Of a stretch of DNA of 64,000 bases, positions 4,862 to 40,640 are shown in pieces. A model generated the notes under the pieces. The model searched no databases. It saw only the letters and a list, made by a program, of their open reading frames with translations, and was not told where the DNA came from. The position numbers were made by a program, and so were the translations under genes. Source of the DNA: Candidatus Hydrogenedens sp. (GTDB taxonomy: Bacteria > Hydrogenedentota > Hydrogenedentia > Hydrogenedentales > Hydrogenedentaceae); contig JBMFRC010000006.1 of assembly GCA_049968235.1 (NCBI GenBank), forward strand, positions 107,866-171,865, written 5' to 3'. How positions within the stretch are numbered: the first letter of the stretch is position 1; every line of letters begins with the position of its first letter.

Positions 4862-6373
4862 ATGATTGATACATTATTATTGAAAACATATATCACTATT
4901 CTTTCAGTCTTATCTAAGAATAAAGATAATCTATCCGAAAATTTCATTTCGCTTAACGATTTTTTACATCTTTTTTCTCAACCCAAACTCAACCTCATAA
5001 ATACGAAAGACTTCTTACAACAGGTAGAAGAGTGTTTTAATCTTCACATAGAAACTGGAAATAAGCTACATTCTGTTCATTTGAATATTGATAAAATGAT
5101 TGTATTAAATTGTCTGTCTATCTTTAATAAACTTATCGGTAAAAATATTTTTTCTATTTATTATGAGGAAACACAAGAAGGTGGTTTTCTCATTCCGAAT
5201 CTCACTTTGTTTTCATCGAATAATCTGGAGCAATTGTCAAATTTTATCTTGGTTAATAATTTTTTACCTTTAAATACTTCATTCATTAATACACAGTGGA
5301 CTAAAATCACAAATGGTGGAAAAATACAAATCAAACAAAATCAAATTATATTCAAGCTTGCTGGTTTTAAATTACCAGCCAGGAACAATCCTTTATGTGA
5401 ATTTGCCCCTGAATTTTCTTCTGCATTAGAAGAAGAAATCGAAAGTCTCATCTCTAATTATATATCCTCATGGGATTTTAATAAGATAATTGATATTCAT
5501 GTATTTTTCAATTCTATATGGGAATATTTAAGACCGTTTATAACTAATCCTAATAAAATAGAGATTAGAATAGATAAACCTATCCCTATACTAAAGATAT
5601 CGGAACTCAGTTTATCTTCAATACTTCTTTGTAATATTTCTCCATTTATCATTTTGCATAACCTTCTAACAGGGATATTCAGTATTAGTTATGAGACAAA
5701 AGGGAAAAACTTTATGGTCGAAACAGTAATAAGAACGGAGAAACCTTTTGAATATCCTTTAATTGCCCAAAGGGCAATTAAATATTTCGTGGAACAAATA
5801 AAAGGAAGTCTAACCATTGAAAGTAAACAAATAAAAAATGATTGTATATTTACAACTACACTTTCTATTCCCGACAATATCGGCATTTTTTTAGATACCG
5901 AATTACATGGTTGGGAGTGTCTAACAGCAGAAAGTCAGGATATTTTACGACGATTGAGTTATGAATGTTCAATACCTTATGAACATCCATTTATTTCAGA
6001 ACTTATTCGATTTGAAATAGAAAATTATTTTCGTGAACTTTTCTCAAAGCCTCTATTTATCAATCTTTCCCATGAATTATTGGAGAGAAACAAGCGTTAT
6101 ATCAGTCATACTATAAAATCTATGTTAGAGGAAATAGAAAAAGGAAAAATCAAAAAGAATTCTTTTAATCCTTTATCCATAGGACAAATAATGGATGCCT
6201 TTTTAAGTTTACCTGACGTAGAAAATAGATTTCGTAAAATTTTTAATACAGATACAGTCAATATGACACATTTATTAGAATTATCGAAAACATTAAAAGA
6301 ATTCCCCCACTCCAGCAAATCATTGATTTCTATATTAATTTTCTTTATACAAAATACAAAGAAGTCCAATTAA
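4862..6373 (+). CDS. hypothetical protein (503 aa, Asn/Ile-rich, no recognisable motif)
   Basis: Long uninterrupted ORF with no motifs I can recognise. Confidence 0.5.
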   Translation: MIDTLLLKTYITILSVLSKNKDNLSENFISLNDFLHLFSQPKLNLINTKDFLQQVEECFNLHIETGNKLHSVHLNIDKMIVLNCLSIFNKLIGKNIFSIYYEETQEGGFLIPNLTLFSSNNLEQLSNFILVNNFLPLNTSFINTQWTKITNGGKIQIKQNQIIFKLAGFKLPARNNPLCEFAPEFSSALEEEIESLISNYISSWDFNKIIDIHVFFNSIWEYLRPFITNPNKIEIRIDKPIPILKISELSLSSILLCNISPFIILHNLLTGIFSISYETKGKNFMVETVIRTEKPFEYPLIAQRAIKYFVEQIKGSLTIESKQIKNDCIFTTTLSIPDNIGIFLDTELHGWECLTAESQDILRRLSYECSIPYEHPFISELIRFEIENYFRELFSKPLFINLSHELLERNKRYISHTIKSMLEEIEKGKIKKNSFNPLSIGQIMDAFLSLPDVENRFRKIFNTDTVNMTHLLELSKTLKEFPHSSKSLISILIFFIQNTKKSN

Positions 6374-6379
6374 TAGCTT

Positions 6380-6919
6380 CTAAACTTTTAATGTTTTGAT
6401 AATGTTATTTATTTCATTCTCTATTAACTTATATATCTCTATATCATTCATATTCGAGAATCTTTCTCTACATTCTCCCGTGTGAATTGATAAAAGTGTG
6501 TGTGTATTGTGGATAATATAAATTTGCATATTAATATTGGGATTCGTAATAAACATTCCGGCAATGGAATTCCCTAAATCTCCTACTGGCATCCTGTCAA
6601 TATTTGATAACACAAAAGTCAACGCAACCCTGGCACCTCCTAAATCTTCACTTTTACCAATTACAACATCGCCACCGGCTCTTTCTGCTGAACCTTTAGC
6701 CAAACTTAATCCCATTCCCACTATTTTTGATTTTTTTGTTGTATAAAATGGGTCAAACAACTGTTCTTCATCAACGCTAAAACCTTTTCCATTATCTTCA
6801 ATTATCAGGGTAAGCAAATCAGTTTCCTCATTTATATCCAACAAAATTCGTATCTCATTTGCACCTGCATTAATTGAATTTTCTATCAAATCAAGGATAT
6901 GTAAAGAGAGTTCAATCAA
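6380..6919 (-). CDS. stand-alone histidine-kinase-like ATPase (HATPase_c) protein
   Basis: IIEDNGKGF...DPFYTTK...GMGLSLAKGSAERAGGDV matches the N/G1/G2 boxes of GHKL ATPases. There is no HisKA or H-box. It overlaps the upstream PHP gene by 8 nt. Confidence 0.65.
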   Translation of the reverse strand: MIELSLHILDLIENSINAGANEIRILLDINEETDLLTLIIEDNGKGFSVDEEQLFDPFYTTKKSKIVGMGLSLAKGSAERAGGDVVIGKSEDLGGARVALTFVLSNIDRMPVGDLGNSIAGMFITNPNINMQIYIIHNTHTLLSIHTGECRERFSNMNDIEIYKLIENEINNIIKTLKV

Positions 6920-7682
6920 TTTCTATGACCTCCAAAACAGTATTTGTCCTTATTCCTTTTTTTATACCGTCAAAAGTGAGACTATCCACGCATATTTCTG
7001 TTCGAACATGCCCAATTTCATCTATAGAATGTGCATCTGAAGAAGTAATTACCGGAAGATTTTGAGGTAGTGAATATATGATACTTTTTAAAAGAAACTC
7101 TTTCTTTTCGATAACCCTTTTTACTGATATAGGTGATATTTCTAACACATCAAACACATTGTCAGGAATAATACCCAGCTGGCTTGTAATAGAAAAAGAA
7201 GGGCGGTCAACATGACTGGCAATAATCATTGCGTTATATTTTCTTAATAATGCAATTACATTTTCTAAATTCATACCCGATGATAAATACAGCGATTTTT
7301 CTTCTTCTCCTATAACTTCTCCTTTTGAATTAATAATTAGCTGAGGTTCTAAAAAGTCTTTCTTGTTTAACTCTTCACTTAAAGTTTCTCTTATAATTTT
7401 TCCAACCGACTCTGCATCTTCTAAATCGGGAAATATCCCTAAAACATGTACTTCTTCTTCAGTTGTAATCTCTATTCCTGGAAGAAATAATATCTGTGGG
7501 AACCAATTCTGTCCATATTCATAAAATGCCCGCACATTCCTCGTGCTATTGTGATCACATATAGCAAATGCATTTATCCCTTTTTTTATTAAGCGTGGAT
7601 ATATATTCTGGGGTAGCATCATTCGGTCTGCACATGGGGATAAAACAGAATGAATATGTAAGTCAGAAAATAATATGGACAA
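6912..7682 (-). CDS. PHP-domain phosphoesterase
   Basis: N-terminal FSDLHIHSVLSPCAD...AFAICDHNS, matching the PHP (polymerase/histidinol-phosphatase) metal-binding motifs HxH and DHN. Confidence 0.7.
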   Translation of the reverse strand: MSILFSDLHIHSVLSPCADRMMLPQNIYPRLIKKGINAFAICDHNSTRNVRAFYEYGQNWFPQILFLPGIEITTEEEVHVLGIFPDLEDAESVGKIIRETLSEELNKKDFLEPQLIINSKGEVIGEEEKSLYLSSGMNLENVIALLRKYNAMIIASHVDRPSFSITSQLGIIPDNVFDVLEISPISVKRVIEKKEFLLKSIIYSLPQNLPVITSSDAHSIDEIGHVRTEICVDSLTFDGIKKGIRTNTVLEVIEID

Positions 7683-7686
7683 AACA

Positions 7687-8037
7687 CTACCCTCTTATAC
7701 CCAACTCATACAATTTTCCAACAATATTAAATGCAGTATCGGAAGATGAAAATAATAATATTTTTTCTTGTTCTGCTTTCTTCATGACATTATCATCGGG
7801 ATGGCGGTTTTGTATAAAAATGACTGCAGAAATTTCTGCATGGACACATACCGCTATTACATTGATATGTGTCTGTAAAGTAATTAGAATAGAGCCTTTT
7901 TTCGCATTTGCTAAAACATCACTCAGTAAATCCGATACATACCCTTCACTAACTTCTCTATCTAATAAGTCAGCAATTTCAGGAGTAAGTAATTCCAATT
8001 GTAATTCCTCATAAATTTCTTTTAATTTCTTACTCAT
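7687..8037 (-). CDS. DRTGG-domain-like small protein (paralog of 9631..9975)
   Basis: 116 aa. VSDLLSDVL...ILITLQTHINVIAVCVHAE...ILLFSSSDTAFNIVGKL aligns with the DRTGG protein at 9631..9975 (SDLIHSASENTLIITHLNHISL...AFLLVSSLEMYETCGVI). Confidence 0.55.
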   Translation of the reverse strand: MSKKLKEIYEELQLELLTPEIADLLDREVSEGYVSDLLSDVLANAKKGSILITLQTHINVIAVCVHAEISAVIFIQNRHPDDNVMKKAEQEKILLFSSSDTAFNIVGKLYELGIRG

Positions 8038-8053
8038 ACATTTATCTCCATTT

Positions 8054-9634
8054 TTACATTCTATTCAAATATGGGCAGTTGTTTATATCTTTCTTCATTA
8101 TTACAATGTCTTCTGCAAAATTCAAGCATGCGGGTGCTCCACAAACTCCACAATCATAGCCGGGTAATTTTTTATTTATTTTTTCTATCTCACTAAGTTT
8201 CTGAATCGCTATTCTTACATCCTCATCAAGTCGCACACCTTTCCGTGAATTGATAGTGGATACACGGTATATTGCATCTATTTTTTGATTTTCATATTTA
8301 TGCTTCTGTTCATTCCAGAATGAATCAAAAATTATTTTTGACATGGTGGGTTCTTCACCCCAATATGGAGAGCCAAAACAGCCATTATAGCAAGCATACA
8401 ATTCCACCATTTTTATAGGGACAGGTAATTGTTTCTTTTCTATATTTTCTAAAAACGTTTTTACCTGCTCTATTCCAGATATTGTTACTATGCCATCATT
8501 GCTATTTTTGTCAATATTTATATTGTGTATTTTATCTTTTTGTTTTTTCTTATTTGTTTCTTTATATATATCCATTATCATTTCAAATGATTTCTGGGGA
8601 GAAATCATTTGAATAGAAATATCTAAATTTTTATTGTTATTAACTGCGGATATCTGAGCAGGACAAGAAGGTATAAAAAAGATATTTCGTCTTTCAGCGA
8701 AACTACTTATCGCTGTTTCTATAGGTCCCAAATAGGGAGCAATATTATCAATCAATGAAGGATATTCCGTTTGTATCCAGTATAGGACTGCGGGACAAAC
8801 GGGTAATATTAAAGGGAAATTAATTTTTTCATTGTTCTCAATATATTTTTGTGTTTCTTTTTGTAATACTTCCTCCCATAATACTAATGGAAATACTTCC
8901 AATCCTTTTCTGTGGAATTTTTCTTCGAACTCATCCCATGAATAATAAAGTAGAATAGAAGCAATCCATGGTGAGGGGGCGATAAGTATTCCCTGCTTTT
9001 CCTTTTCATGATTTTTCTCGCAATCCTCCAAATCAAATACTTTCGTAGGACATATCTTTATACATTCATTACAATTGATGCAATGGTGAGACAAAATATA
9101 CAAGTTTTTTTCATACAGTCTTATGGCTTTTGTGGGACATCTTGATAGACATTGCAAACATTTTTTACATTTCTCTGCCGTTACATGAACATAACTATCA
9201 ACTTTTGAAAAATCTTTGTCTGACTTTACAAATATAAGTATTTTTAACAAAGTGCCTGTGGGCTCGCTATGTATAACAAAGTAGTCTGAATTTTTCCTTA
9301 TGTTAGGTAAACCCATTCCTGCTCCGAAACCCATTTCTCTTGCTTCGTCGGGTGCAGTAGAGTACCCTTCCTGAACAGCAAGGTCAATTCGGGGAATACC
9401 GGGTCCTGTATCCTTAACTACAATCTCAATTTTTTCATCATCTATTGTAAAATTAATTTCTCCTCCATAAGAATGGATAATAACATTCATCTCCGACTCA
9501 TAAACGGCAATCATAATCTTTCGGATTATTTCGGGGGCTATTGCCAACTTACTTAATATTTCTTTAATTTTTGAAGAAACCTGTCCGCCACCTAAATAAT
9601 CTCCTTTTTTTACTGGATATGAACCTGTAATCAT
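8054..9634 (-). CDS. sensory [FeFe]-hydrogenase-like protein fused to an N-terminal RsbW/SpoIIAB-type serine-kinase ATPase; two 4Fe-4S ferredoxin motifs; C-terminal Cx2Cx4Cx16C
   Basis: Residues 40-125 are HATPase_c_2-like (VYESEMNVIIHSYGGEI...VKDTGPGIP...MGFGAGMGLPNIRK). C156xxC159xxC162xxxC166P and C185xxC188xxC191xxxC195P are ferredoxin motifs. H-cluster-like candidate motifs are LPVC280PAV, IPSC324PAQ and E411LYAC415YNGC419FGSP (compare ExMACxxGCxxG). The C-terminus is C495GVC498GAPAC503-x16-C520. Confidence 0.7.
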   Translation of the reverse strand: MITGSYPVKKGDYLGGGQVSSKIKEILSKLAIAPEIIRKIMIAVYESEMNVIIHSYGGEINFTIDDEKIEIVVKDTGPGIPRIDLAVQEGYSTAPDEAREMGFGAGMGLPNIRKNSDYFVIHSEPTGTLLKILIFVKSDKDFSKVDSYVHVTAEKCKKCLQCLSRCPTKAIRLYEKNLYILSHHCINCNECIKICPTKVFDLEDCEKNHEKEKQGILIAPSPWIASILLYYSWDEFEEKFHRKGLEVFPLVLWEEVLQKETQKYIENNEKINFPLILPVCPAVLYWIQTEYPSLIDNIAPYLGPIETAISSFAERRNIFFIPSCPAQISAVNNNKNLDISIQMISPQKSFEMIMDIYKETNKKKQKDKIHNINIDKNSNDGIVTISGIEQVKTFLENIEKKQLPVPIKMVELYACYNGCFGSPYWGEEPTMSKIIFDSFWNEQKHKYENQKIDAIYRVSTINSRKGVRLDEDVRIAIQKLSEIEKINKKLPGYDCGVCGAPACLNFAEDIVIMKKDINNCPYLNRM

Positions 9635-9975
9635 TGTTGTATTTTTCCCTTTTCAAATATTCCATAAATGACACCACAGGTTTCATACATCTCTAAGGAA
9701 GATACTAAAAGAAAGGCTTTATTTTCTTCCGCACTTTCTATCAACTCATGGATAGGTTCTGAGTCTGTAATAAGACATATAGCAGGAACATCAAATATAT
9801 TAAACAACTGAACTAGAGAGATATGATTTAAGTGTGTAATTATCAATGTGTTTTCGCTGGCTGAATGAATTAAATCACTAATTCGGTCCCCTGCAAAAAC
9901 TTTCCCTATTTCTGTTTTTTCCCCTTTAACAACAACCTCTATACCTAATACCTTTATAATATCCTGTATATCCAC
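9631..9975 (-). CDS. DRTGG-domain protein
   Basis: 114 aa. VFAGDRISDLI...LIITHL...AICLITD...AFLLVSSLEMYETCGVI fits the DRTGG (PF07085-type) pattern GDR...vtpldtfetarrl. ATGA start/stop overlap with the downstream hydrogenase-like gene. Confidence 0.6.
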   Translation of the reverse strand: MDIQDIIKVLGIEVVVKGEKTEIGKVFAGDRISDLIHSASENTLIITHLNHISLVQLFNIFDVPAICLITDSEPIHELIESAEENKAFLLVSSLEMYETCGVIYGIFEKGKIQQ

Positions 9976-10042: not shown

Positions 10043-11566
10043 TTACTGTTCTTCTTCAGATTCCTTATCCTCTTTATTATTTCTTCCTGTTATTTTCATC
10101 TTTTCTAAATACTCATCTAAAGTAAGCCCACTTTCTCGGATTTTTTCAATATATTTAGATACTGCTTCAAAATAAGTAAAATCACATTTTCTTAGTCCTT
10201 CTTTAATCTCGTCTGTATTATTTCCTTCATTTCTTTCCAAAGAGCGTAGCAGTCGATTTTCAAATTCCATTTTTGAGAGCACTACTTTATATGTTTTATC
10301 TGCCACTAAATCTGTTTTTACTGCAACTTTATCTGGGGGGAACGACCTTTCATATTCTGCGTTTATTCCTGCCCATTCCGTTCTACTCCAGCCGTATTTA
10401 AGCAAATCAATTAAATATTGCTCAATTTGCTTTCCTGTCAATGTTATTTCGACCAGTTCTTTAGCGCGGTGTCCTGCTGTTAGATAGACAGCATTGTAAT
10501 CTAATTTAGTGGGTGGAAATGTACTTCGAATAAGTAATCGCGGATGACAAAAGGCAATATCAGCATTGGCTCTTTCTTTAATTGCATTAGCACTTAATAC
10601 TCCAATTTGACTTGTATTAATTAATTTTCTGTTATCTATCAAAAACTCTGATGCGATTGGACATATCTTCTTCTCTTCTGCTGATACCCAATTTAAAATT
10701 CCTTCATCAGGTTTTATAATATCATGTTTCATTTCCACTACCTGGTTCGTATATCTACTAATCTTTTGCTTCTCATTATCTATCACCAATTTTAAATGCC
10801 CCGCATACATAGCATAGGAACCCGCCTGAACGATGATTGCATTTGTATCTTCACACTGCCTTGCTTCCTTCAATAACTCGTGAGTATGTCCGGAAATAAA
10901 CACAGAAATTTCAGGGATTTTTTTAGATATTTCTGCACAGGCGTTACTTCCAAGATGGCATAGTGCAATAATGAAATGACAACCTTGTTTTTTTAATTCA
11001 TCAATCGCTTTTTTTAGTTCGGGAACAGATTCTCTGGCAACTTTCATTTCTTCACCACCTAATTTCACAACACCGATAAAACCTATGGGTAAATTTCCCA
11101 CTTTTTTTACAACCCACGGCTTATAACAATGTTCTAAACCTTCTTTATAATTTGTTCCTACAAATTCTACTGAAGGTGACAGTTCCCTTAACTTGCAAAG
11201 TCGTTCAATTCCTTTATCATAATCATGATTTCCGATAACCATCACATCATATTTCATTTGCTCTATGATCTTATACATCATTTCTCCATCAGTTAAATCC
11301 GCAACCATGTCTCCTTTATCTGTCAAATCACCTGCATCAAGCAACAATACATCTGGATTTTCTTCCCTTACATTATTTACAAATCCTGCAATATAGGGAA
11401 TTCCTCCTACACCCAAATAACCCGGTCGTATATGGTCGTGAATATCATTTGTATAAACAATATTAACTTCTACATCTTCTGAAAATAAATTAAAAGAAAC
11501 CAAAAACAGTAAAATTACACTCAAAAGTACCCTCAAATAATAATTTTTGTTATTCTTTGTCAACAT
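10043..11566 (-). CDS. secreted bifunctional metallophosphatase/5'-nucleotidase (UshA family)
   Basis: Signal peptide. DIHDHI, LLLDAGDLTDKGD, GNHDYD and GHTHE are calcineurin-like phosphoesterase motifs, followed by a 5'-nucleotidase C-terminal-like region and an acidic tail. Confidence 0.8.
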   Translation of the reverse strand: MLTKNNKNYYLRVLLSVILLFLVSFNLFSEDVEVNIVYTNDIHDHIRPGYLGVGGIPYIAGFVNNVREENPDVLLLDAGDLTDKGDMVADLTDGEMMYKIIEQMKYDVMVIGNHDYDKGIERLCKLRELSPSVEFVGTNYKEGLEHCYKPWVVKKVGNLPIGFIGVVKLGGEEMKVARESVPELKKAIDELKKQGCHFIIALCHLGSNACAEISKKIPEISVFISGHTHELLKEARQCEDTNAIIVQAGSYAMYAGHLKLVIDNEKQKISRYTNQVVEMKHDIIKPDEGILNWVSAEEKKICPIASEFLIDNRKLINTSQIGVLSANAIKERANADIAFCHPRLLIRSTFPPTKLDYNAVYLTAGHRAKELVEITLTGKQIEQYLIDLLKYGWSRTEWAGINAEYERSFPPDKVAVKTDLVADKTYKVVLSKMEFENRLLRSLERNEGNNTDEIKEGLRKCDFTYFEAVSKYIEKIRESGLTLDEYLEKMKITGRNNKEDKESEEEQ

Positions 11567-12321: not shown

Positions 12322-12747
12322 TTATTCCCCTGTAACTGTAATTCTTTTCCCTATAGAGACTGATTTCTTAGGTAGTGTTATTTTAAGTAAACCCATTTGC
12401 ATTTCTGCGCTAACTTTATCTTCATCTATCTCATCAGCGAATTCAATAATCTTTTCAAAACTTCCATATAAACATTCGCAAAAAACTGTTTTTTCATCGC
12501 CTTCATCTGCTCTTCTTACTTTATTTCCGCGTATACTCAATTTGTTTTTATCAATAGTCAACACAATATCTCCTTTCTTTACACCTGGCAATTCTACAAA
12601 AACATAATACTCTGCATTTGTTTCATAAACATCAGCAAGAGGTTCCCAGGGTTCACCTTCATTTAAACCTGTATTGAGACGACGCCATACTTCCATCATC
12701 AATTTTCGAGGCAATACTCGTAATGTATCAAAAGGGGAAATAAACAT
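12322..12747 (-). CDS. Hsp20/alpha-crystallin family small heat-shock protein
   Basis: 141 aa. ADVYETNAEYYVFVELPGVKKGDI...GLLKITLPK matches the alpha-crystallin domain pattern. Confidence 0.85.
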   Translation of the reverse strand: MFISPFDTLRVLPRKLMMEVWRRLNTGLNEGEPWEPLADVYETNAEYYVFVELPGVKKGDIVLTIDKNKLSIRGNKVRRADEGDEKTVFCECLYGSFEKIIEFADEIDEDKVSAEMQMGLLKITLPKKSVSIGKRITVTGE

Positions 12748-12883
12748 GGCATATTCTCCTATTTATATTTAGTTGTATCTACTATTATTATATACCAATA
12801 ATGACTGGAAGTGTTTCGTTTTTCTGATAAAAATATTCAATGTCCAATATATTTTTGAAGACAATTAATTGGAATTTACGAAA

Positions 12884-14092
12884 TTAACCGAATATTTCTC
12901 TGGCTGTATAAAACAACTTCGGAATATCTAAATAATAAGGACATTGCTCCATAGCAGTTCTAATCTGCTCTTTTGATAGATTTTCGATATATTTTTGAAT
13001 ATCTTTATAACAATAACGAGCCCAACTTTCATCTCCGTATCTCTTTGCATACAAAATACATCGCCAGACATCTTGCACATGTAGTTCTTCCTGCATACCT
13101 TTTTCACAATGCTGGTTACAACCGGCACAATAAAGATGTTGTGTCCTTTCTGCTATATTTCTCAACTGTTGTTTTTCCAACTCTGTTAATTTCATAGGTG
13201 TTATCGCTGCATACGCATTTTCATGAACATGTTGTATATTCCCCATTTGGGATGCAATACCTGCAATCCGTTCATCTTCCCACACTGCTTTCAATTTTGC
13301 CTGTATTTTTGTAAAATTTTTTGATGTCCATGGTAATAATTCTTCGCCATCATCCGGAATACTACCTAATGTTTTAATTGCTACCAGCCCTATTCCTGCT
13401 TCTGTGCATGCATCTATTGCTCTATTTAAATTATCCTTTCCCATTTCACGAAAACTATACTTAAACATAATCACATCAATTCCTCCTCCTAGCTTGCTGG
13501 CTTTCATCATAAGTTCATGTGCATTCCCGTGATGAGCACTAAAACCAAAATAGCGTATTTTTCCCTCTTTTTTTAATTTATCCCCCATATCTATAAACTC
13601 TTTGTCCAAAAATCGTTCGTGCTTAACAATATGCATGTAAAAAATATCTAAATAATCTGTCTCCAATTCCTGCAACGACAAATTTATATTCTCAACAAAC
13701 TTTTCAGGAGTGGCTTTGTCCTCTGTTTGATGAACTTTGGATGCAATTATCAACTTTTTTCTATCCCCAATTTGTTTAATAAAAGGAGCTATCGTTTTAT
13801 GAGATTGTCCTTCTGCATACATTTGGGCAGTATCTAAATGATTTACCCCTAATTCGTATGCACGATGCAATCTTCTATCATATACCGGATCCAAATTTTG
13901 ACAACATCCCATAATCAGGATAGGTGTTACAATATCCGTTTTACCTAATTTCCTGACTGGAACCTTAGTTCCGGGAGGTATTTTCCAGGAACTCGGCTTA
14001 TTTTCAGTCTCTTCCGAAAAACTTGTTTTAGTTAATATGCTTGCTGTAGTTACTGTTTTAATTGTTTGTTCGATAAAATCTCTTCGATTCAT
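12884..14092 (-). CDS. Tat-exported aldo/keto reductase with a C-terminal Cys-rich (probable Fe-S) extension
   Basis: MNRRDFIEQT twin-arginine signal. AKR core (LDTAQMYAEGQSHK..., IASKV). C-terminal CAGCNQHCEKG...C...C cluster. Confidence 0.8.
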   Translation of the reverse strand: MNRRDFIEQTIKTVTTASILTKTSFSEETENKPSSWKIPPGTKVPVRKLGKTDIVTPILIMGCCQNLDPVYDRRLHRAYELGVNHLDTAQMYAEGQSHKTIAPFIKQIGDRKKLIIASKVHQTEDKATPEKFVENINLSLQELETDYLDIFYMHIVKHERFLDKEFIDMGDKLKKEGKIRYFGFSAHHGNAHELMMKASKLGGGIDVIMFKYSFREMGKDNLNRAIDACTEAGIGLVAIKTLGSIPDDGEELLPWTSKNFTKIQAKLKAVWEDERIAGIASQMGNIQHVHENAYAAITPMKLTELEKQQLRNIAERTQHLYCAGCNQHCEKGMQEELHVQDVWRCILYAKRYGDESWARYCYKDIQKYIENLSKEQIRTAMEQCPYYLDIPKLFYTAREIFG

Positions 14093-14178: not shown

Positions 14179-14586
14179 ATGCCATTAATTCAATGGAACG
14201 ATTCTTTAAGTGTCGGCATTCCTTCTATGGATACACAACATCAAAAATTAATCAATATTATAAATCGACTACATGATGCTATGCGTGAAGGAAAAGGGAA
14301 AGATATTATATCCCCCGTATTAACGGAGTTACATAATTATACCGTTACTCACTTTACAGCAGAAGAAAAATTAATGGAACAATGTAAATACAGTGGTCTT
14401 GCCGTTCAGAAACAACAACATAATAATTTTGTCAATCAAATTAAAAAGTATCAGTCTGACTATGAAAAAGGTTCATTAACTCTTCCTCTTTCGGTTTCCA
14501 ATTACTTAAAAGACTGGCTTATTAATCATATTCAGGGTCTGGATAAAAAATATGAGACATCTATGAAATCAGCAGGAATTAAATAG
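14179..14586 (+). CDS. bacteriohemerythrin (hemerythrin HHE cation-binding domain)
   Basis: 135 aa. W-x-D...H...H...E...H...H...D ligand spacing (QWNDSLSVGIPSMDTQHQ...HFTAEEKLM...HNNF...WLINHIQGLDKKY). Confidence 0.75.
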   Translation: MPLIQWNDSLSVGIPSMDTQHQKLINIINRLHDAMREGKGKDIISPVLTELHNYTVTHFTAEEKLMEQCKYSGLAVQKQQHNNFVNQIKKYQSDYEKGSLTLPLSVSNYLKDWLINHIQGLDKKYETSMKSAGIK

Positions 14587-14597
14587 GAGAAATATCT

Positions 14598-15005
14598 ATG
14601 GCTTTTCTCAATTGGAACGATAATTTTAATATTGGAATATTTCAAATTGATGCTCAACATAAAAATCTGGTTAATATTATTAATCAGTTATATGAAGCGA
14701 TGAGTGTAGGGAAAGGAAAAGAAATTATTGGGAAAATTGTAAAAGAATTGGCGGGTTATACAATTACTCATTTTGGCACTGAAGAGAAACTCATGCAGGA
14801 ACATGGCTATCCTGAATTGCCTCAACATAAAAAAGAACATGAACTTTTTGTTAAAAAAGTTCAGGAATTTAATAATGAAATTCAAAAAGGGAATCTTATC
14901 ATTGTTTCTAATGTTGCCAATTTCTTGAAGGAATGGTTGATAAAACATATTCAAGGAACCGATAAGAAATATGGTCCATTTTTAAAGGGAAAAGGGGTAA
15001 AATAG
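14598..15005 (+). CDS. bacteriohemerythrin (tandem paralog)
   Basis: 135 aa, about 50% identical to the preceding ORF, with the same ligand pattern. Confidence 0.75.
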   Translation: MAFLNWNDNFNIGIFQIDAQHKNLVNIINQLYEAMSVGKGKEIIGKIVKELAGYTITHFGTEEKLMQEHGYPELPQHKKEHELFVKKVQEFNNEIQKGNLIIVSNVANFLKEWLIKHIQGTDKKYGPFLKGKGVK

Positions 15006-19596: not shown

Positions 19597-21015
19597 TTAC
19601 TCTTGTGCTTCTTTGAATTGATTAATGATTGCTGTTAAGGTTTGTTTAGCGTCTCCAAAAATCATGCGTGTATTTTCTTTGAAGAAGAGCGGGTTTTCTA
19701 CGCCGGAGAAACCGGAAGCAAGAGACCGCTTTAAGACAAAACAGGTTTTGGCATAATCTACATTAATAATAGGCATTCCGTAGATGGCACTCTTGGGGTC
19801 TTCTCTTGCGGAGGGATTAACAACATCGTTTGCACCGACTACGATACAAACATCTATCGTGTCAATTATCGGATTAATATCATCCATCTCCAGCAATTGG
19901 TCATAAGGGACATTGGCTTCTGCTAATAGGACATTCATGTGTCCTGGCATACGACCGGCAACAGGGTGAATGGCGTATTTTACTTCCGCTCCATTTTTTT
20001 CTAATAGGTCTGCTAATTCTTTTACTACATGTTGTGCTTGTGCAACTGCCATGCCATAGCCCGGAACAAAAACTACAGAACGAGCTGCTTCCAATACGAA
20101 ATAGGCATCTTCAGGTGTTAATGCTTTCACTTCACCGGTCACAGAAGTGCTCACTGCTCCTTCCGATGAACCAAAACCGCTGAACAGCACATTTGCAAGG
20201 GAACGGTTCATAGCTTTGCACATAATCGCTGTAAGGATAATACCACTGGCACCGACTAAGGAGCCTGCTACGATTAATACGGTGTTATTTAATACGAAAC
20301 CGGAGGCACATGCTGCCATACCTGAATAACTGTTTAATAGACATATCACAACAGGCATATCTGCCCCGCCGATAGGGATGGTTACTAAAATACCAAGGAT
20401 ATTTGCTAATATCATTAGCAATATAACTGCGGGATAAATTACAGTACCATTGGGACTTGCAAAGAAAAGGACTCCCATCAGGATGCCTAATCCTAATACA
20501 ACAGCATTTACTAACTGTTGTCCCTTAAATAGGATGGGCTTCCCTTGAATTTTTTCTTCTAACTTTGCGTAGGCAACCATACTTCCTGAGAATGTAACTC
20601 CACCAATCAGCATTGCTAAATAGGTGGCAAGTATTAAAACAATATTCTCAAGGCTATATTCACCATAACCTTTGCCGGTATAGGTAACATGGAAATCCGA
20701 CCAACCAACTAACATACTGGCAAGTCCACCTGTTCCATTGAAAAATGCAACGAAGCCGGGCATGGAGGTCATCGGAACTTTAATTGCAGCAATGGCTCCA
20801 ATAACAGTTCCGATAAGTCCACCGATTATTATCCATTCGTAGGATTTAATTACCGGATTTACAAGCGTAACAGCAATAGCAAGGCACATTCCTAATCCGG
20901 AGATGATGTTTCCTTTAATGGCGGTTGTCGGTTTACTGAGCATTTTCAGCCCAAGAATAAAAGTAACCGCCGATACCATATAGGCGACTTCAATTAATAT
21001 TTTAATCTCGTTCAC
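19597..21015 (-). CDS. pntB: NAD(P) transhydrogenase subunit beta
   Basis: 472 aa. N-terminal polytopic membrane domain plus C-terminal dIII NADP(H)-binding domain (GYGMAVAQAQH...VGANDVVNP). Confidence 0.9.
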   Translation of the reverse strand: MNEIKILIEVAYMVSAVTFILGLKMLSKPTTAIKGNIISGLGMCLAIAVTLVNPVIKSYEWIIIGGLIGTVIGAIAAIKVPMTSMPGFVAFFNGTGGLASMLVGWSDFHVTYTGKGYGEYSLENIVLILATYLAMLIGGVTFSGSMVAYAKLEEKIQGKPILFKGQQLVNAVVLGLGILMGVLFFASPNGTVIYPAVILLMILANILGILVTIPIGGADMPVVICLLNSYSGMAACASGFVLNNTVLIVAGSLVGASGIILTAIMCKAMNRSLANVLFSGFGSSEGAVSTSVTGEVKALTPEDAYFVLEAARSVVFVPGYGMAVAQAQHVVKELADLLEKNGAEVKYAIHPVAGRMPGHMNVLLAEANVPYDQLLEMDDINPIIDTIDVCIVVGANDVVNPSAREDPKSAIYGMPIINVDYAKTCFVLKRSLASGFSGVENPLFFKENTRMIFGDAKQTLTAIINQFKEAQE

Positions 21016-21017
21016 GG

Positions 21018-21509
21018 TTATTTCCTTTCCTTCCCTTTAAACATTCTTAACATTCTGTCTGTAACAAGATAACCACCTGCAACATTTATCATGGCACAAA
21101 TCATTGCGATAACACCGATACCTATTAATAACACTGAATCTCTCCCCTGTCCTGCTGCCAGACAGGCACCGACAACTGTAATTCCTGATATAGCATTTGA
21201 CCCGGACATAAGGGGCGTATGAAGTTGGGATGGAACTTTGGTCAATATTTCCACTCCGAGAAATACCGCTATCAAAAAAGTAAATAGAAGTAATGTCATG
21301 GGGTTTAATGCCCTGGTACCGGGTGATGTTTGTTCTGTTGCACATTCCGTAGCAGTAATAGCGGGTATCATTCCTGTCCCTGCATTACTATCCGCTTTTA
21401 CTTTTGTGAAACTTCCTAACAATAAAAGAGATAAGATGGAAGCAAACACTACCAAACTTATCCATCCCATCAGTGGAATTTTATTTAGTTTTATTACATT
21501 TTTTTTCAT
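21018..21509 (-). CDS. pntAB: NAD(P) transhydrogenase subunit alpha part 2 (membrane)
   Basis: Small hydrophobic protein between pntAA and pntB. ATGA overlap with the pntAA stop. The true start could be a later Met. Confidence 0.7.
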   Translation of the reverse strand: MKKNVIKLNKIPLMGWISLVVFASILSLLLLGSFTKVKADSNAGTGMIPAITATECATEQTSPGTRALNPMTLLLFTFLIAVFLGVEILTKVPSQLHTPLMSGSNAISGITVVGACLAAGQGRDSVLLIGIGVIAMICAMINVAGGYLVTDRMLRMFKGKERK

Positions 21510-22639
21510 TGTGAACTCCTTGCCTTTTGTATTAATTCATTTCTCAATTTGCCTTCATGAATTATCAAACATCCATTTAGAATTTCATCTTCTATTTTGT
21601 AATTGAACGATTTTGTTTCTTTATTCCAGAAATGTTCTATGAGATTCCCTAAATTAGCAGAATACATTTGACTTGCATGAACCGCCACGCGTCCCGGAAA
21701 ATTCTCTGCTCCAATCACAATAACATTGTCTATTATCACCTCTTCGCCGGGTTTTGAACCTTCGACATTTCCTCCCGTTTCTGCTGCAAGGTCTACAATA
21801 ACACTGCCCGGCCTCATTGCTTTTATCATATCATTTGTAACCAATAGCGGAGCCTTCTTACCGAAAACCTGAGCGGTTGTTATTACAACATCAGACTGGG
21901 CTATAACTTTTTTCATGCCTTCCCGTTGTTTTTGTTTCTGTTCCTCTGTGAGTTCCAGTGCGTAACCATCTTTTGTTTGTCCGGTAGGTCCCACATCAAT
22001 CTTCACAAATTTTGCCCCTAATGATAAGACCTGTTCTTCTACCACAGGTCTTGTATCGAATGCTTCCACTCGTGCACCTAATCGTTTTGCGGTGGCTATT
22101 GCCTGCAACCCAGCAACACCACAACCGATAATAAAAATGCGAATGGGCTTTAAAGTTCCCGCCGGTGTCATCATCATTGGAAATACCATCGGCAACCTAT
22201 TTGCAGCAACTATAACCGCAACATAACCTGCTAAATTTGCCTGTGAACTTAACGCATCCATCTTCTGGGCTAATGTGGTTCGTGGAATCATTTCCATCGA
22301 AATCGCGTTAACTTCACTTTTAATAAATTCATCCTGTATAGCAAAATCAAAGAAAGGTTCTAAATAACTAATATGCAAAGAACCTTTCTTTTGTAATTTA
22401 ATTTCCTCGATAGGGGGTTTTCTTAATCGTAAAACAATATCTGCGTTTTTCAATCCATCTTCACGTGATACCACCTTTGCACCTGCTTCAGTATATTGTG
22501 CATCTGAATAACCACAATTCCACCCCATATTGGATTCAATACATACCTCTGCTCCCAACTTGACTAATTTTTTTACTGTATCGGGAACTATAGGTATGCG
22601 AGTCTCTTTAGAGTAGACTTCCTTTGGAATAAAAATCAT
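21506..22639 (-). CDS. pntAA: NAD(P) transhydrogenase subunit alpha part 1 (dI, Ala-dehydrogenase/PNT fold)
   Basis: 377 aa. Rossmann IIGCGVAGLQAIATAKRLGARV and AlaDh/PNT N- and C-domains. Confidence 0.85.
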   Translation of the reverse strand: MIFIPKEVYSKETRIPIVPDTVKKLVKLGAEVCIESNMGWNCGYSDAQYTEAGAKVVSREDGLKNADIVLRLRKPPIEEIKLQKKGSLHISYLEPFFDFAIQDEFIKSEVNAISMEMIPRTTLAQKMDALSSQANLAGYVAVIVAANRLPMVFPMMMTPAGTLKPIRIFIIGCGVAGLQAIATAKRLGARVEAFDTRPVVEEQVLSLGAKFVKIDVGPTGQTKDGYALELTEEQKQKQREGMKKVIAQSDVVITTAQVFGKKAPLLVTNDMIKAMRPGSVIVDLAAETGGNVEGSKPGEEVIIDNVIVIGAENFPGRVAVHASQMYSANLGNLIEHFWNKETKSFNYKIEDEILNGCLIIHEGKLRNELIQKARSSQ

Positions 22640-36473: not shown

Positions 36474-37949
36474 ATGCAAATAAGTATAAATAAGTCCCTT
36501 TATAAATTTATTCTCTTTCTGTCTATAATTTTTTCGATGTTTATTATAACTTTCCACAGTTATACAGATGAACCTGCTTTACCTAAAGGATTATCTTCAA
36601 GTGAAAATACAACTTCTCCACAGTTAAAAGACAATAATGAACCTGATCTACCTCAAGGATTACAATCCCAACCGACAAATGAACCTCAACTTCCACAGGG
36701 ACTGGGGGAAATCGCCATAAAAGAAGAAAAAAAAGAAGAGAATAAACAAAAAAAACCGACGCCTCTTAATATAGACATAAAGGGATTTTTGGATAATCGT
36801 GCCGGTATTCGTTATAGAGAAGACAAGCAACAGTCAAAAGATTTAATCCTTGGGGAATCTCGTTTACAATTAAGAGCGGATAAATTCTGGGATAAGGTGG
36901 GTATTGAAACCACAGGGGACTTTTATGGAGATTTTGTTCAGGAGAAATTAAATTTTGACCTGCGTCAGGCACGGTTAACATGGACATTATCACCTACTTT
37001 AGACTTACGGATAGGTCGTCAAATCCTTACATGGGGAACAGGAGACCAAATCTTTATAAATGACCTCTTTCCCAAGGATTGGAATTCATTTTTTGTAGGT
37101 AGAGAACAGGAATATTTAAAAGCTCCTTCTGATTCTATAAAATTAGGTTGGTATCCTGAATGGTTTAACTTTGAACTTGTTTATACTCCTCGTTTCACAC
37201 CGGATAGATATATCACAGGAAACCCAATTACATTTTGGAATCCTCTTTTTAATAGACTTCAGGGAGAAGAGCAAGAAATCCGACCTGACCATCCCGGTCC
37301 TCGATTTCGTGATGATGAATGGGCTTTCCGTGCGTATAGAAAAATTAATAACTTTGAATTTGCCTTGTATGCTTATTCTGGAAGATGGAAAAGCCCCGGC
37401 GGTCAAAAATTATTACCTCCACTACAATCATACTTCCCAAAACTAAATGTTTATGGGACCAGTTTAAGAGGCCCTGTGTGGAAAGGAATATTATCTTTAG
37501 AAATGGGTTACTATGACTCTAAAGAGGACCGCGATGGGACAAGTCCCTTTATTAATAACTCGGAAATTCGTTTCTTAGTAGGTTATGAACAGGAATTAGC
37601 AAAGGACTTTACAGGTGCTTTCCAGGTTTATTTAGAACATATGTTAGATTACAGAAATTATGAAAGCAATCAACCTTTCTGGATACATAATAAAGATGAA
37701 AATCGTCTATTGACTACAATCCGTCTTACCCGACAATTGATGAATCAAAATCTTATTTTGTCATGGTTCATGTATTATTCCCCAACAGACCAGGATTTCT
37801 TTTTAAGACCTAATGTTCGTTATAAAATAAATGATAAATGGTGGGTTGAAGGTGGAGCCAATATATTTATTGGAAACGAACCTTATACTTTCTTCGGACA
37901 ATTTATGGAAAACTCAAACATCTATATAGGTGCAAGATGTTATTTTTAA
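36474..37949 (+). CDS. hypothetical outer-membrane protein (signal peptide, N-terminal EPxLPxGL repeats, C-terminal Phe)
   Basis: Signal peptide. Three EP(A/D/Q)LP(K/Q)GL repeats. Alternating amphipathic beta-strand character. Terminal ...ARCYF. Confidence 0.5.
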   Translation: MQISINKSLYKFILFLSIIFSMFIITFHSYTDEPALPKGLSSSENTTSPQLKDNNEPDLPQGLQSQPTNEPQLPQGLGEIAIKEEKKEENKQKKPTPLNIDIKGFLDNRAGIRYREDKQQSKDLILGESRLQLRADKFWDKVGIETTGDFYGDFVQEKLNFDLRQARLTWTLSPTLDLRIGRQILTWGTGDQIFINDLFPKDWNSFFVGREQEYLKAPSDSIKLGWYPEWFNFELVYTPRFTPDRYITGNPITFWNPLFNRLQGEEQEIRPDHPGPRFRDDEWAFRAYRKINNFEFALYAYSGRWKSPGGQKLLPPLQSYFPKLNVYGTSLRGPVWKGILSLEMGYYDSKEDRDGTSPFINNSEIRFLVGYEQELAKDFTGAFQVYLEHMLDYRNYESNQPFWIHNKDENRLLTTIRLTRQLMNQNLILSWFMYYSPTDQDFFLRPNVRYKINDKWWVEGGANIFIGNEPYTFFGQFMENSNIYIGARCYF

Positions 37950-37978
37950 TCATCTAACACTATACAGGACACTGTATA

Positions 37979-39718
37979 ATGCAAAAGCAAAAAAAAGTAA
38001 GATTTTATTATATTTTCTTATTGCTAACAATTCCTTTTCTTATAACAAATAATGTCTTTGCTAAAAAGAAATCTGCAGATAAAAAAACGCCTTCTCAACC
38101 GTCTATACCCATCAATCAATATGAGAACCAAAAATACAGTGAATATTCAGGACCTAAAGGCATATTGGATATAGATGTAACCGATGTCGTAGGGAAGTAT
38201 TGGGGAGCAAGAGTTGATTTATTAAATATAGAGGATGGGAAACGATATCGTTTTGATTTTCCGGAGGGGAAAGGAGAACAAAAAGTCCCTATTGGAAGTT
38301 TTAGGGCTTATATTTTTGCATATGATAATGGGGTACCTATAATGGTGCAAATCAAGGATATTACAATAAAAGAAAATCAACCCGTTTTTATTCCAATTAC
38401 ACTTCTGGAAGGGACAACAGGTCCTCTTGTTTTGAGAGATTTCGACAGTGATGCTGACCTTGTGCTGGATAGAGTTGAAATAGAATCAGGGACAGACCCT
38501 TACAATCCTCTGGATGTCCCCGGTAAAAAGACAATACCTGTCGAAAACAAAGTTATACAAAATAAACCGGGATGGTACAAAGGTGAATTATGTTGCTTTT
38601 CTAAATATAGCATCGGTAGTGAAACAGTAGGAGAACTAATCAAAAGGGCAGAAAAAGATGGGCTTGATTTTCTCGCTATAACAGATATAAACACATTGAA
38701 ATCCATTGAAGACCCCGAATATCATTCCGATAAACTTGTTCTCATACCTGCAATGAAATGGGGAAATGAACAGATGGGATATGCTCTGGTGTATTGTCCT
38801 CGAACACCTTTAGATAGTCCGACAACAATTCCTGAGGCACAAGCGGAATGTATTCGTGTCCAGGCACAGGGTGGAATTTTTGCTATCGCTCATCCTTGTT
38901 TTCCGACAGGCTTCTGGCGTTGGGGTTTAAATTATGTAAATGCTATTCAAGTGTGGTGTAGAGAGTGGAGAGCCATTCCACCTCTTACTATAGATAAATT
39001 AGATGACTGGCTCAAGGAAAAGAAAAATGGAAAATTTATATATTCACTTACAGCCGCAGTAAATGAATCGAAGATTGCATCTGTTTCTGCCAATTCTCAA
39101 TCAACACGCTTCTGGGATTATGAAGTAGCACGAGGTGCTATGGTATGTGGCATTGCAGGAAGTCATTCTTCAAACCCTTCAGTTCCCTTAGGAAAGCCCA
39201 TAACCTATATACGAGCAGAGAATAAATCATTAGGGGCTATCCTTGAAGGACTTCGTTTGGGAAGAACTTATGTATCTTCTGGGATTAATGGCCCAAAATT
39301 AAGTTTTATGGCAGATTCATTAGCGGATAATAAAATTGATGTAAGCATTGGAGGTATTGTCCCTCTGGGAATAGATATTCGTTTTGAAGCAATTGCTGAA
39401 AATGCAAAAGGAAAAAAATTAGAAGTGTTATTTAACGGAAGACCTATCGTTACAAAAATCATTGAAAGTGATAACTTTGCAATCCGTTTTACGGACAAAC
39501 CTATACGTAGTGGTGCCTACCGACTTCGCATTATTGGTGCTCCGGAGAATACAAAAGGCTTTGGTGATATAGAAGTCTATGCAATGACCAGCCCTATATA
39601 TGCACAGGATATTACTCCCGAATTACTCTGGCGTTTGCCCAAATTTGACCCCAAAAAAGCATGGATAGAAATTAAGCCCAGTGAAGAAGGTTCATACCTC
39701 AATCTCCCTGAAAACTAA
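37979..39718 (+). CDS. secreted protein with a degenerate PHP-like domain
   Basis: Signal peptide. GELCCFSKYSIGSETVGELIKRAEKDGLDFLAITDINT resembles the PHP motif hvHTxxSDG...AITDH, but the His ligands are replaced. Confidence 0.45.
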   Translation: MQKQKKVRFYYIFLLLTIPFLITNNVFAKKKSADKKTPSQPSIPINQYENQKYSEYSGPKGILDIDVTDVVGKYWGARVDLLNIEDGKRYRFDFPEGKGEQKVPIGSFRAYIFAYDNGVPIMVQIKDITIKENQPVFIPITLLEGTTGPLVLRDFDSDADLVLDRVEIESGTDPYNPLDVPGKKTIPVENKVIQNKPGWYKGELCCFSKYSIGSETVGELIKRAEKDGLDFLAITDINTLKSIEDPEYHSDKLVLIPAMKWGNEQMGYALVYCPRTPLDSPTTIPEAQAECIRVQAQGGIFAIAHPCFPTGFWRWGLNYVNAIQVWCREWRAIPPLTIDKLDDWLKEKKNGKFIYSLTAAVNESKIASVSANSQSTRFWDYEVARGAMVCGIAGSHSSNPSVPLGKPITYIRAENKSLGAILEGLRLGRTYVSSGINGPKLSFMADSLADNKIDVSIGGIVPLGIDIRFEAIAENAKGKKLEVLFNGRPIVTKIIESDNFAIRFTDKPIRSGAYRLRIIGAPENTKGFGDIEVYAMTSPIYAQDITPELLWRLPKFDPKKAWIEIKPSEEGSYLNLPEN

Positions 39719-39818: not shown

Positions 39819-40640
39819 ATGGAAGAAGTAAATAACATATACTTAAATGATGACCCGCTTATCATAGCGGGGAGAAAATTTAAGTCACGACTTTTAATTG
39901 GCACCGGTAAATTTCCGTCTGCCGAAGCATTACGAAGAACGATAAAGGCCTCCGGTACAGAGATTGTAACCGTAGCTCTAAGACGCGTTGACCTGAAAAA
40001 GCCAGAAAATGATAGTATCCTTTCTGTTCTCAATCCTAAAGAAATTCTTATTTTGCCCAATACCAGTGGAGCCAGAACTGCAGAAGAAGCATTAAAGTTA
40101 GCACGCATTGCCCGCTCTGCAGGATTAGAACCATGGGTAAAATTAGAACTGACACCAGAACCAAAATATTTACTACCTGACCCTATCGAAACACTAAAAT
40201 CAGCAGAACTATTAATTAAAGATGGATTTACAGTCCTTCCTTATATTCAGGCAGACCCTATTCTTGCGAAAAAATTAGAAGAATTAGGCACGGCAACAGT
40301 CATGCCTTTAGGTTCTCCCATCGGTAGCAATAAAGGATTAAAAACAAAAGAACTTATAAAAATTATTATTGAGCAATCCAATATCCCGGTAATTGTAGAT
40401 GCGGGATTAGGTGCCCCATCCCATTCCGCAGAAGCAATGGAAATGGGGGCAGATGCCGTCCTTGTTAACACTGCTCTTGCTGACGCTCAAGAACACGAAA
40501 AAATGGCGCTGGCTTTCCGTCTATCTACTGAAGCAGGACGGTTAGCTTTTCGTGCCGGATTGGGTCCGCAACGAGATATAGCAGAGGCTTCTTCTCCATT
40601 AACAGGTTTCTTATTTAACACAAAGAACAAATCCGAATAG
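39819..40640 (+). CDS. thiG: thiazole synthase
   Basis: [22 protein letters not shown]-terminus and TIM-barrel ThiG length (273 aa). Confidence 0.85.

Follow-up and report, generated by a model that had tools for sequence, protein, structure and literature searches.

A kinase-fused, [FeFe]-hydrogenase-like iron-sulfur protein and its gene cassette in Candidatus Hydrogenedens

How putative sensory [FeFe]-hydrogenases transfer their signal is an acknowledged open question (PMC8163306), and a locus of Candidatus Hydrogenedens sp. raises it in a compact form: what could a hydrogenase-like protein that is covalently joined to a protein kinase sense, and to which partners would it pass the signal? 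The locus occupies positions 6380-9975 of the window, by which we mean the whole 64,000-nucleotide (64-kb) stretch of contig JBMFRC010000006.1 (assembly GCA_049968235.1) analysed here. Its five minus-strand genes encode two small DRTGG proteins (DRTGG-A and DRTGG-B), a 526-aa fusion of a Ser/Thr-kinase domain with iron-sulfur (Fe-S) clusters and an [FeFe]-hydrogenase H-domain, a PHP-family phosphoesterase and a stand-alone GHKL ATPase. The original prediction, made from the sequence alone, had proposed an H2- or redox-sensing operon with a logic resembling anti-sigma factor partner switching. We read the locus as an Fe-S sensor kinase cassette, an explanation to which, taken as a whole, we give a probability of about 0.6.

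A five-gene cassette and its relatives

All five predicted open reading frames (ORFs) were found, tightly packed on the minus strand and with the ATGA and 8-nt overlaps that had been described. DRTGG-A comes first (9631-9975; 114 aa, single-domain), and its stop codon overlaps the start of the fusion gene (8054-9634) in an ATGA, read caaCAATGATTaca. DRTGG-B (7687-8037; 116 aa, single-domain) and the PHP-family metal-dependent phosphoesterase (6912-7682; 256 aa, with PHP and PHP_C matches) follow 16 nt and 4 nt further on, behind ribosome-binding sites of the GGAG type, and an 8-nt overlap (TTGATTGA) leads into the last gene (6380-6919), which encodes a histidine-kinase-type ATP-binding (CA) domain of 179 aa without DHp or H-box. 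Promoter and terminator scans gave counts equal to the shuffle expectation and are uninformative on co-transcription. Compared with two relatives, all five genes are under purifying selection, with dN/dS between 0.09 and 0.26 (DRTGG-A 0.13-0.26; fusion 0.11-0.22; DRTGG-B ~0.09; PHP 0.14-0.19).

The domain calls of the original prediction were all right. Pfam matched Fe_hyd_lg_C, HATPase_c_2, Fer4 and PHP, and DRTGG was marginal in the window: DRTGG-A had no Pfam DRTGG match, and DRTGG-B reached 21.3 bits against a cut-off of 25.2 (Hpr_kinase_N 21.8 bits). The orthologues in L018, a Thermoanaerobacteraceae locus, pass the DRTGG threshold, with 30.4 bits for DRTGG-A (L018:7619-7981) and 26.8 bits for DRTGG-B.

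The order DRTGG, kinase, Fe-S H-domain, DRTGG and PHP, usually followed by GHKL, recurs in the best 80 loci, which were scanned with the window proteins by phmmer and come from Planctomycetota, Spirochaetota, Actinomycetota, Verrucomicrobiota, Bacillota, Bacteroidota, Synergistota, Chlorobiaceae and Atribacterota. Because the same order is found in 80 independent loci, the arrangement is far beyond chance, and the prediction that the genes form one cassette is supported. Among loci with adequate flank, the upstream DRTGG is present in 55 of 57, PHP in 54, the downstream DRTGG in 52 and GHKL in 39. Single-linkage clustering of the neighbour proteins merged unrelated Fe-S proteins and serves as a rough map only. 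The kinase is joined to the sensor in Planctomycetota, Spirochaetota, Actinomycetota and Hydrogenedentota, and Bacillota, Bacteroidota and others encode the two in adjacent genes (kinase ~140 aa, sensor ~440 aa), the split loci falling among L014-L080.

Within the lineage, the comparison used the relatives P0002, P0009, P0012, P0059 and P0095. Three loci of 43-81% identity (L081-L083) keep the synteny of a Metallophos gene, the cassette, a convergent gene for a protein of ~500 aa, an M50 peptidase and a class I aminoacyl-tRNA synthetase, with no hydrogenase within 10 kb of the cassette; more distant Hydrogenedentota relatives (L084 and L085) also have the cassette alone. Since all five genes are under purifying selection and this synteny is conserved with the cassette standing alone, the five genes are one self-contained, functional cassette and not a remnant.

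Elsewhere the cassette keeps other company. HydA and HydB are present in 33 of the 55 loci with enough flank and missing from 22, and Pfam identified them in L018 and L002. Directly downstream of the cassette, the mapped loci carry genes for NuoE-like HydC, HydD, NuoF-like HydB and HydA; in many bacteria this 'histidine-kinase-linked' module heads an electron-bifurcating HydABC hydrogenase operon. The absence of a catalytic hydrogenase partner, as predicted, holds for the present locus and not for the family: tblastn with HydA, HydB and HydC against the window matched only the ferredoxin and H-domain of the fusion. HydB in fused-sensor loci is a NuoF-type protein of ~1020 aa with a GltD-like Pyr_redox_2 part (L002:12537-15614; similar in L004, L007, L009, L013 and L016), that is, of the non-canonical BfuB type treated in PMC11406978.

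Much of this has precedents. In HydDB such proteins are named group C1, 'histidine-kinase-linked', a linkage to a kinase gene having been described (PMC8542988, PMC6163223), and the group is held to be regulatory (PMC11406978, PMC8542988, PMC6163223). The HATPase fusion was reported from Elusimicrobia, where it lies near Rex and stands upstream of a trimeric hydrogenase of group A (2020, bioRxiv 10.1101/765248). A survey of Hydrogenedentota (mSystems 2024, PMC11406978) then counted, in 179 genomes, 53 group C1 proteins with HATPase_C, 21 of which adjoin group A3 hydrogenases, and reported that the P1-P3 motifs could hardly be found in them. For Hydrogenedentota, then, the literature already covers the family, its fusion and doubts about H2 sensing, and the cassette is the kinase-fused form of group C1. 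The novelty suggested by the original prediction is not supported: with the cassette in at least 584 GTDB species, as counted by relatives of the fusion, the window holds an ordinary member of a widespread family. On DRTGG together with hydrogenase, with or without PHP, our literature search found nothing relevant, and likewise for the DRTGG, PHP and GHKL companions. The identification as a fused cassette of group C1/M2e type is, in our judgement, very highly probable. It probably represents the M2e ('group D') type of TamHydS, the characterised enzyme of Thermoanaerobacter mathranii (PMC8163306); orthology to TamHydS rests on agreement in motifs and architecture with L018.

The H-domain and the signal

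The fusion protein, called '[Fe-Fe] hydrogenase large subunit C-terminal domain-containing protein' by NCBI, consists of an N-terminal GHKL Ser/Thr-kinase domain of the SpoIIAB/RsbW class (~aa 1-135; 9230-9634, minus strand, like the domains that follow), a ferredoxin-like domain with two CxxCxxCxxxC motifs (C156-C166 and C185-C195; 9035-9187), a divergent, shortened [FeFe]-hydrogenase H-domain (~aa 210-445; 8300-9007) and a C-terminal Cx2Cx4Cx16C cluster domain (C495, C498, C503 and C520; 8069-8167). Pfam matched HATPase_c_2 at residues 19-132 (34.1 bits), two Fer4 motifs at 151-207, Fe_hyd_lg_C above its cut-off (43.7 versus 22.1 bits, the best stretch covering profile positions 166-244 of 245) and the FeS family PF04060 at 490-522 (41.2 bits), and no PAS family. 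A confident AlphaFold2 model (pLDDT 86.3, pTM 0.87) was obtained from 34 homologues, and its top 50 Foldseek matches in the PDB are all [FeFe]-hydrogenases (CbA5H, DdH, HydA of HydABC, CpI), with E-values down to 3e-12. In the model, then, the central domain has the [FeFe]-hydrogenase fold that had been predicted for it.

Sixteen of the 17 cysteines fall in four cluster motifs and would suffice for four cubane sites; nearly all of the sixteen are invariant or near-invariant among homologues. As scored in 34 fused homologues, the Fer4 cysteines C156, C162, C166, C185, C188, C191 and C195 and the four of the tail are invariant. The Cx2Cx4Cx16C motif has also been described for M2e and M2f enzymes (PMC8163306), and this type of cluster domain occurs at the N-termini of RnfB and CFeSP as well.

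Could the signal be H2? A true H2 sensor would carry a complete, HydEFG-matured H-cluster; binding or oxidation of H2 would switch the kinase, a DRTGG protein would be phosphorylated and PHP would reverse the modification. The cluster ligands are consistent with this. C280, C324, C415 and C419 of the window protein are the counterparts of the L1, L2 and L3 cysteines in group A HydA, the first three being invariant and C419 at least 90% conserved in the same 34 homologues. An alignment of 87 sensors (24 fused, of at least 515 aa, and 63 split) with three group A HydA references shows that the fused and split clades alike retain the four cysteines of the cluster, as well as prolines that correspond to P231 and P324. 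TamHydS, the nearest characterised relative, binds an H-cluster and turns over slowly, in a sensor-like manner; its signal transduction was stated to be open by Land et al. 2020 (PMC8163306), in agreement with the original prediction that no signalling mechanism has been worked out. Genes of the fused clade often lie beside HydABC, the gene for the HydF maturase stands upstream of the cassette in L002 (a neighbour in L004 falls in the same cluster), and most Hydrogenedentota carry group A3 hydrogenases.

The surroundings of these ligands tell against H2. The window motifs read LPVCPAV, IPSCPAQ and ELYACYNGCFGSP, and the classical P1 (TSCCPxW), P2 (MPCxxKxxE) and P3 (ExMxCxxGCxxGGGQP) are not matched, in line with the survey of the phylum. 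In CpI numbering, Gln327 replaces Lys358, the P2 lysine directed to the distal CN, and Val279 replaces the proton-relay Cys299; Met353 and Met497 are replaced too. At the position of Lys358, 24 of 24 fused proteins have Gln or Glu, whereas the split proteins, with S/T-P-C, have Lys throughout but for one Arg. Position 327 is not left to free drift, being kept as Gln/Glu, and Gln could hydrogen-bond a CN ligand, which counts in favour of H2. TamHydS is marked by Met353 to Ser, Met497 to Leu and the lack of Cys299, and Ser/Thr at Met353 is a conserved M2e property (PMC8163306); no fused protein has Ser or Thr there, the window reading P-S-C and the other fused proteins V, A or P. Judged by its sequence, the window protein has the architecture of group C1/M2e and departs from the classical H-cluster motif at Lys358 and from the M2e feature at Met353.

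A further loss concerns the Gly-Gly-Glu/Gln loop (FGxxGGxxE) between L2 and L3, which is present in most split sensors and absent from the window protein and nearly all other fused ones. In the split 437-aa sensor of L018, which has a full-length Fe_hyd_lg_C domain with SSACP, SPCAAK, EGLACIGGC and the Cx2Cx4Cx16C tail, in agreement with the published signature of TamHydS, the loop Glu is residue 253, which probably corresponds to TamHydS Glu252, the proposed start of a proton path. The spacing from L2 to L3 is ~86-105 residues in fused sensors versus 144-156 in group A (roughly 90 against 145), and the Fe_hyd_lg_C score drops from 127.7 bits in the L018 sensor to 43.7 bits in the window protein. 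Fused and split sensors (24 and 63) form reciprocally monophyletic sister clades in a neighbour-joining tree rooted on group A, without bootstrap and without group B, C or E references. No HydE, HydF or HydG is encoded in the window, where a ThiH beside ThiG is the sole radical-SAM/BATS protein. Because the fused clade has Gln/Glu for Lys358 and lacks the Gly-Gly-Glu loop, H2 sensing by this form is doubtful and was overstated in the original prediction; redox sensing through the Fe-S clusters appears at least as likely. The true H2 sensor, with H2 as the specific signal, we consider rather unlikely.

From the kinase domain to a possible output

In the reading that we prefer, that of an Fe-S sensor kinase cassette, the redox state of the four [4Fe-4S] sites of the fusion, the H-domain cubane included, would be set by H2 if a di-iron subsite is bound and otherwise by reduced ferredoxin or a partner oxidoreductase, and would be relayed to the fused SpoIIAB/RsbW-class kinase domain. 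This domain would bind, and probably phosphorylate, DRTGG-A, encoded just upstream, which would couple the signal to a transcription factor: Rex, where it is fused or adjacent. DRTGG-B, PHP and the second, histidine-kinase-type ATPase would act as reset or second arm. The N-terminal domain of the fusion belongs structurally to the partner-switching protein-kinase class, with close matches to SpoIIAB, RsbW and SiaB, and not to the chaperone or MutL classes; its ATP-binding boxes (E46, N50, DxGxG and GxGxG) are invariant in the alignment of fused homologues.

Natural fusions give clues to the partners. In five Actinomycetota loci (L008, L009, L016, L017 and L051; e.g. L009:6910-7974) the DRTGG-A orthologue is the C-terminal domain of a Rex protein, the Rex part being Put_DNA-bind_N plus CoA_binding, and this Rex-DRTGG architecture recurs in at least 120 clusters of proteins 350-400 aa long. 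The best phmmer matches of the window DRTGG-A are such Rex-fused domains (E 1e-21 to 2e-25). In two Clostridia loci (L064:7614-8423 and L025:7590-8402) DRTGG-A is fused to the kinase in a protein of 269-270 aa, whose start is overlapped by a stand-alone Rex gene, by 4 nt in L064; the kinase-sensor fusion is the form of the window's own clade. These three fusions (Rex-DRTGG-A, DRTGG-A-kinase and kinase-sensor) tie the parts together and point to a Rex-type transcriptional output. The Rex-DRTGG fusion is common in Actinomycetota/Thermoleophilia, where its database label is simply Rex.

The two DRTGG families, whose fold resembles the N-domain of HPr kinase, are paralogous (hhalign probability 99.9%, E 2.8e-32). 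Within the GDRxSD motif of DRTGG-A, D30 and S33 are invariant; in DRTGG-B, D36, L37, L38, S39, V41, T53 and N59 are invariant and H57 nearly so, and an invariant Ser in a D-x-x-S-D motif is common to both. Relatives of DRTGG-B number at least 7947, nearly all stand-alone and of ~110 aa, and a search for domain fusions among them yielded stand-alone proteins only. Ser/Thr phosphorylation of DRTGG specifically is a tentative step, which we think somewhat less probable than its opposite.

The two remaining proteins have intact catalytic residues. All metal ligands of PHP are kept, D7, H9, H11, D43, H44, E71, H79, H157, D216 and H218 being invariant in 64 homologues, and the subfamily has an invariant Leu-Ser-Pro-Cys (C17) right behind the HxH metal motif. 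The GHKL protein matches HATPase_c (53.8 bits), and its nearest PDB chains are CA domains of histidine kinases, e.g. WalK 3sl2. The N, G1 and G2 boxes are kept: N14, D42xGxG46 and G68xG70 are invariant in 42 homologues, as are D108, P111 and G113, which lie in a conserved C-terminal extension with no family match.

Several points weigh against the sensor kinase reading. With Gln/Glu at Lys358 and without the loop, the di-iron subsite of the fused clade appears in question. DNA-binding proteins and receiver domains are missing from the cassette, and neither it nor its flanks encode a sigma factor or another output protein of the sequestered kind. No kinase is known to use DRTGG as a substrate, and the domain's invariant Ser is part of its general GDRxSD motif, so the role of this Ser may be structural. 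By tblastn there is no Rex gene in the window, and a scan of it for the Rex operator TTGTGAAnnnnTTCACAA with at most 3 mismatches gave 10 matches versus 8.4 expected, none of them upstream of the cassette. PHP resembles nucleotide/RNA phosphoesterases (RNase AM type) and not the protein phosphatases CpsB/YwqE. The Firmicutes GHKL gene, finally, stands amid structural hyd genes, as in L018, where the orthologue sits between hydC and hydD, and could have a role in the enzyme itself.

This last point would fit an accessory, activation or repair module for HydABC or another Fe-S enzyme, in which the GHKL domains would be ATPases or chaperones, PHP would hydrolyse nucleotides and the Fe-S protein would supply electrons. 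Cthe_0339, too, is a stand-alone GHKL gene within a hydABC cluster, inside the structural operon (PMC3990059), and a possible metabolic role for group C1 has been raised (PMC8542988), which together with the lack of a DNA-binding domain would suit such a module. Against it stand the purifying selection on cassettes far from any hydrogenase in Hydrogenedentota, the 22 of 55 loci without HydA and HydB, the protein-kinase class of the N-terminal domain and the Rex fusions, which argue for transcriptional regulation. The solved HydABC structures that match our model (8a6t, 7p5h and 7q4w), which we take to hold HydA, HydB and HydC only, speak against it as well, and we regard such a module as improbable.

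Much the same low standing is given to a nucleotide-based relay, in which the substrate of PHP would be a nucleotide or short RNA (pAp, a dinucleotide or a nucleotidylated protein), adaptors that bind nucleotides would be provided by the DRTGG proteins, and the GHKL domains would be regulated ATPases or enzymes that transfer nucleotidyl groups, with no Ser/Thr phosphorylation. The nearest relatives of PHP (the nuclease-type PHP domains of TrlF/Ppl ATPases, RNase RNM, the pAp phosphatase, a 3',5'-bisphosphate nucleotidase, and the RNase AM/TrpH-like exoribonuclease 7ug9) are what such a relay would lead one to expect, and DRTGG occurs elsewhere in nucleotide-regulated enzymes, such as the N-domain of HPr kinase and the CBS-pyrophosphatases. 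The similarity scores of PHP are weak (E 0.002 to 7ug9), the kinase domain closely matches the protein kinases, and no cyclase or synthetase that could make a messenger is encoded in the cassette. Two other readings were rejected: anti-phage defence, suggested by the PHP matches to Ppl and TrlF, since PADLOC gave weak domain-level matches only (Ppl 23.7 bits; BrxP 25.1 bits on the ferredoxin region) in a metabolic context, and a two-component system, since Pfam found no HisKA/DHp and no receiver domain in the cassette and the 179-aa protein is a CA domain only.

A more far-reaching form of the sensor kinase reading, and a quite speculative one, is that the fused clade gave up H2 chemistry and keeps its cubanes in a remodelled H-domain as a ferredoxin/redox sensor kinase, with DRTGG taking the role of STAS, PHP that of PP2C, and with a Rex-type output. 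If true, a Rex-type repressor would combine NADH status with that of ferredoxin or H2, and the cassette would be a previously unrecognised kind of partner switching. The cassette controls, or at least accompanies, electron-bifurcating hydrogenases that set the H2/redox balance in anaerobic fermenters, syntrophs and gut bacteria. The covalent fusion of sensor and kinase allows a one-protein assay of kinase activity against H2 or redox state, the chain of fusions names specific testable partners, and the Lys358-to-Gln clade is a natural experiment on what the H-cluster pocket needs.

Genomic setting and known systems

The cassette is flanked by a convergent 503-aa ORF (4862-6373, plus strand), whose stop lies 6 nt from that of the GHKL gene; it has no match in Pfam, NCBIfam or PADLOC and is conserved in place in L081-L083 (498-505 aa). 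On the other side, 67 nt upstream and on the same strand, a gene for a Metallophos/5'-nucleotidase-like protein of 507 aa (10043-11566, minus) has a hydrophobic, signal-peptide-like N-terminus; because it is syntenic in L081-L083 and not in other phyla, it probably lies outside the cassette. Further off, the window holds two tandem hemerythrin genes (14179-15005, plus; 135 aa each, conserved in relatives), a three-gene PntAB proton-translocating NAD(P) transhydrogenase operon (19597-22639, minus), two large adjacent ORFs of 491 and 579 aa without a Pfam match at E <= 1e-5 (36474-39718, plus), ThiG and ThiH followed by a 534-aa ADP-ribosylglycohydrolase-family protein (39819-43443, plus) and a 90-nt tRNA (58926-59015, minus; Rfam 62.5 bits).

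Some relatives differ at the edges of the cassette. In L083 (relative P0012) the GHKL gene is called as two pieces of 70 and 109 aa (12732-13264) and the sensor is without a precomputed Fe_hyd_lg_C match, which could reflect cassette decay or an assembly error. In L085, another Hydrogenedens genome, a single-domain response-regulator gene (9226-9624) ends 6 nt before the cassette, an arrangement found only there and one that may provide another input or output. In Spirochaetota the cassette is preceded by sensor histidine-kinase genes (L005:4868-7337, L007:4827-7335 and L012:4460-7012, the last with PAS); the L005 kinase is paired with a sigma-54-dependent response regulator, and that of L007 likewise by cluster membership.

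Among known systems, one likeness is to Nar1/NARFL-type proteins, which have the H-domain fold and keep the cubane cysteines while the di-iron pocket is degenerate; these are eukaryotic Fe-S assembly factors, with no kinase, Cx2Cx4Cx16C domain or such a gene neighbourhood. HoxBC/HoxJ/HoxA of Ralstonia/Cupriavidus offers the precedent of a low-activity hydrogenase that acts as a sensor over a kinase controlling hydrogenase expression (PMC5707799), but it belongs to an unrelated metalloenzyme family and works through a true histidine kinase and a response regulator. The original prediction was correct that the cassette has neither H-box nor response regulator (no HisKA or Response_reg match), and in or beside it, within the window, there is no HisKA domain, receiver domain or HydF-like protein.

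With SpoIIAB-SpoIIAA-SpoIIE and RsbW-RsbV-RsbU the cassette shares a kinase, small single-domain partners and a hydrolase that are encoded together, but it lacks STAS, PP2C and a sigma factor, the partners being DRTGG proteins and the hydrolase PHP. Partner switching is thus an analogy only, and from its domain content the cassette is neither a two-component nor a canonical partner-switching system. Rex, which senses NADH/NAD+ and represses fermentation and hydrogenase genes, forms a fusion with the DRTGG-A orthologue in Actinomycetota and is encoded immediately upstream of the cassette in some Clostridia, and Rex genes were noted beside the Elusimicrobia fusion; the link consists of gene fusion and neighbourhood only, the window being without a Rex gene.

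The group C (M2f) proteins HydS/HfsB of Thermotoga maritima, Ruminococcus albus and the Thermoanaerobacterium hfsABCD cluster, which contain a PAS domain, likewise combine a hydrogenase-like sensor, accessory clusters, the Cx2Cx4Cx16C motif and linked Ser/Thr kinase and phosphatase genes, and hfsB genetically affects the expression of fermentation genes (adhE, rex) (PMC5707799). The window cassette has no PAS or PP2C, has DRTGG and PHP instead, and its kinase is covalently attached to the sensor. Closest of all is group C1 with TamHydS. The window protein differs from TamHydS and the split group in that the kinase is fused and not encoded by the preceding gene, and in that the fused clade is, in the neighbour-joining tree, a separate sister, with Lys358 replaced by Gln/Glu, no Ser/Thr at Met353, no loop and a shorter H-domain; in the window it adjoins no hydrogenase. 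The likeness extends to two [4Fe-4S] motifs, the H-domain, the Cx2Cx4Cx16C tail and no PAS, Cys299 being absent in both, and to the same neighbours (GHKL kinase, two DRTGG proteins, PHP and a second GHKL protein, often followed by HydABC). It is also in group C1 that the survey of the phylum places the Hydrogenedentota HATPase_C proteins (PMC11406978).

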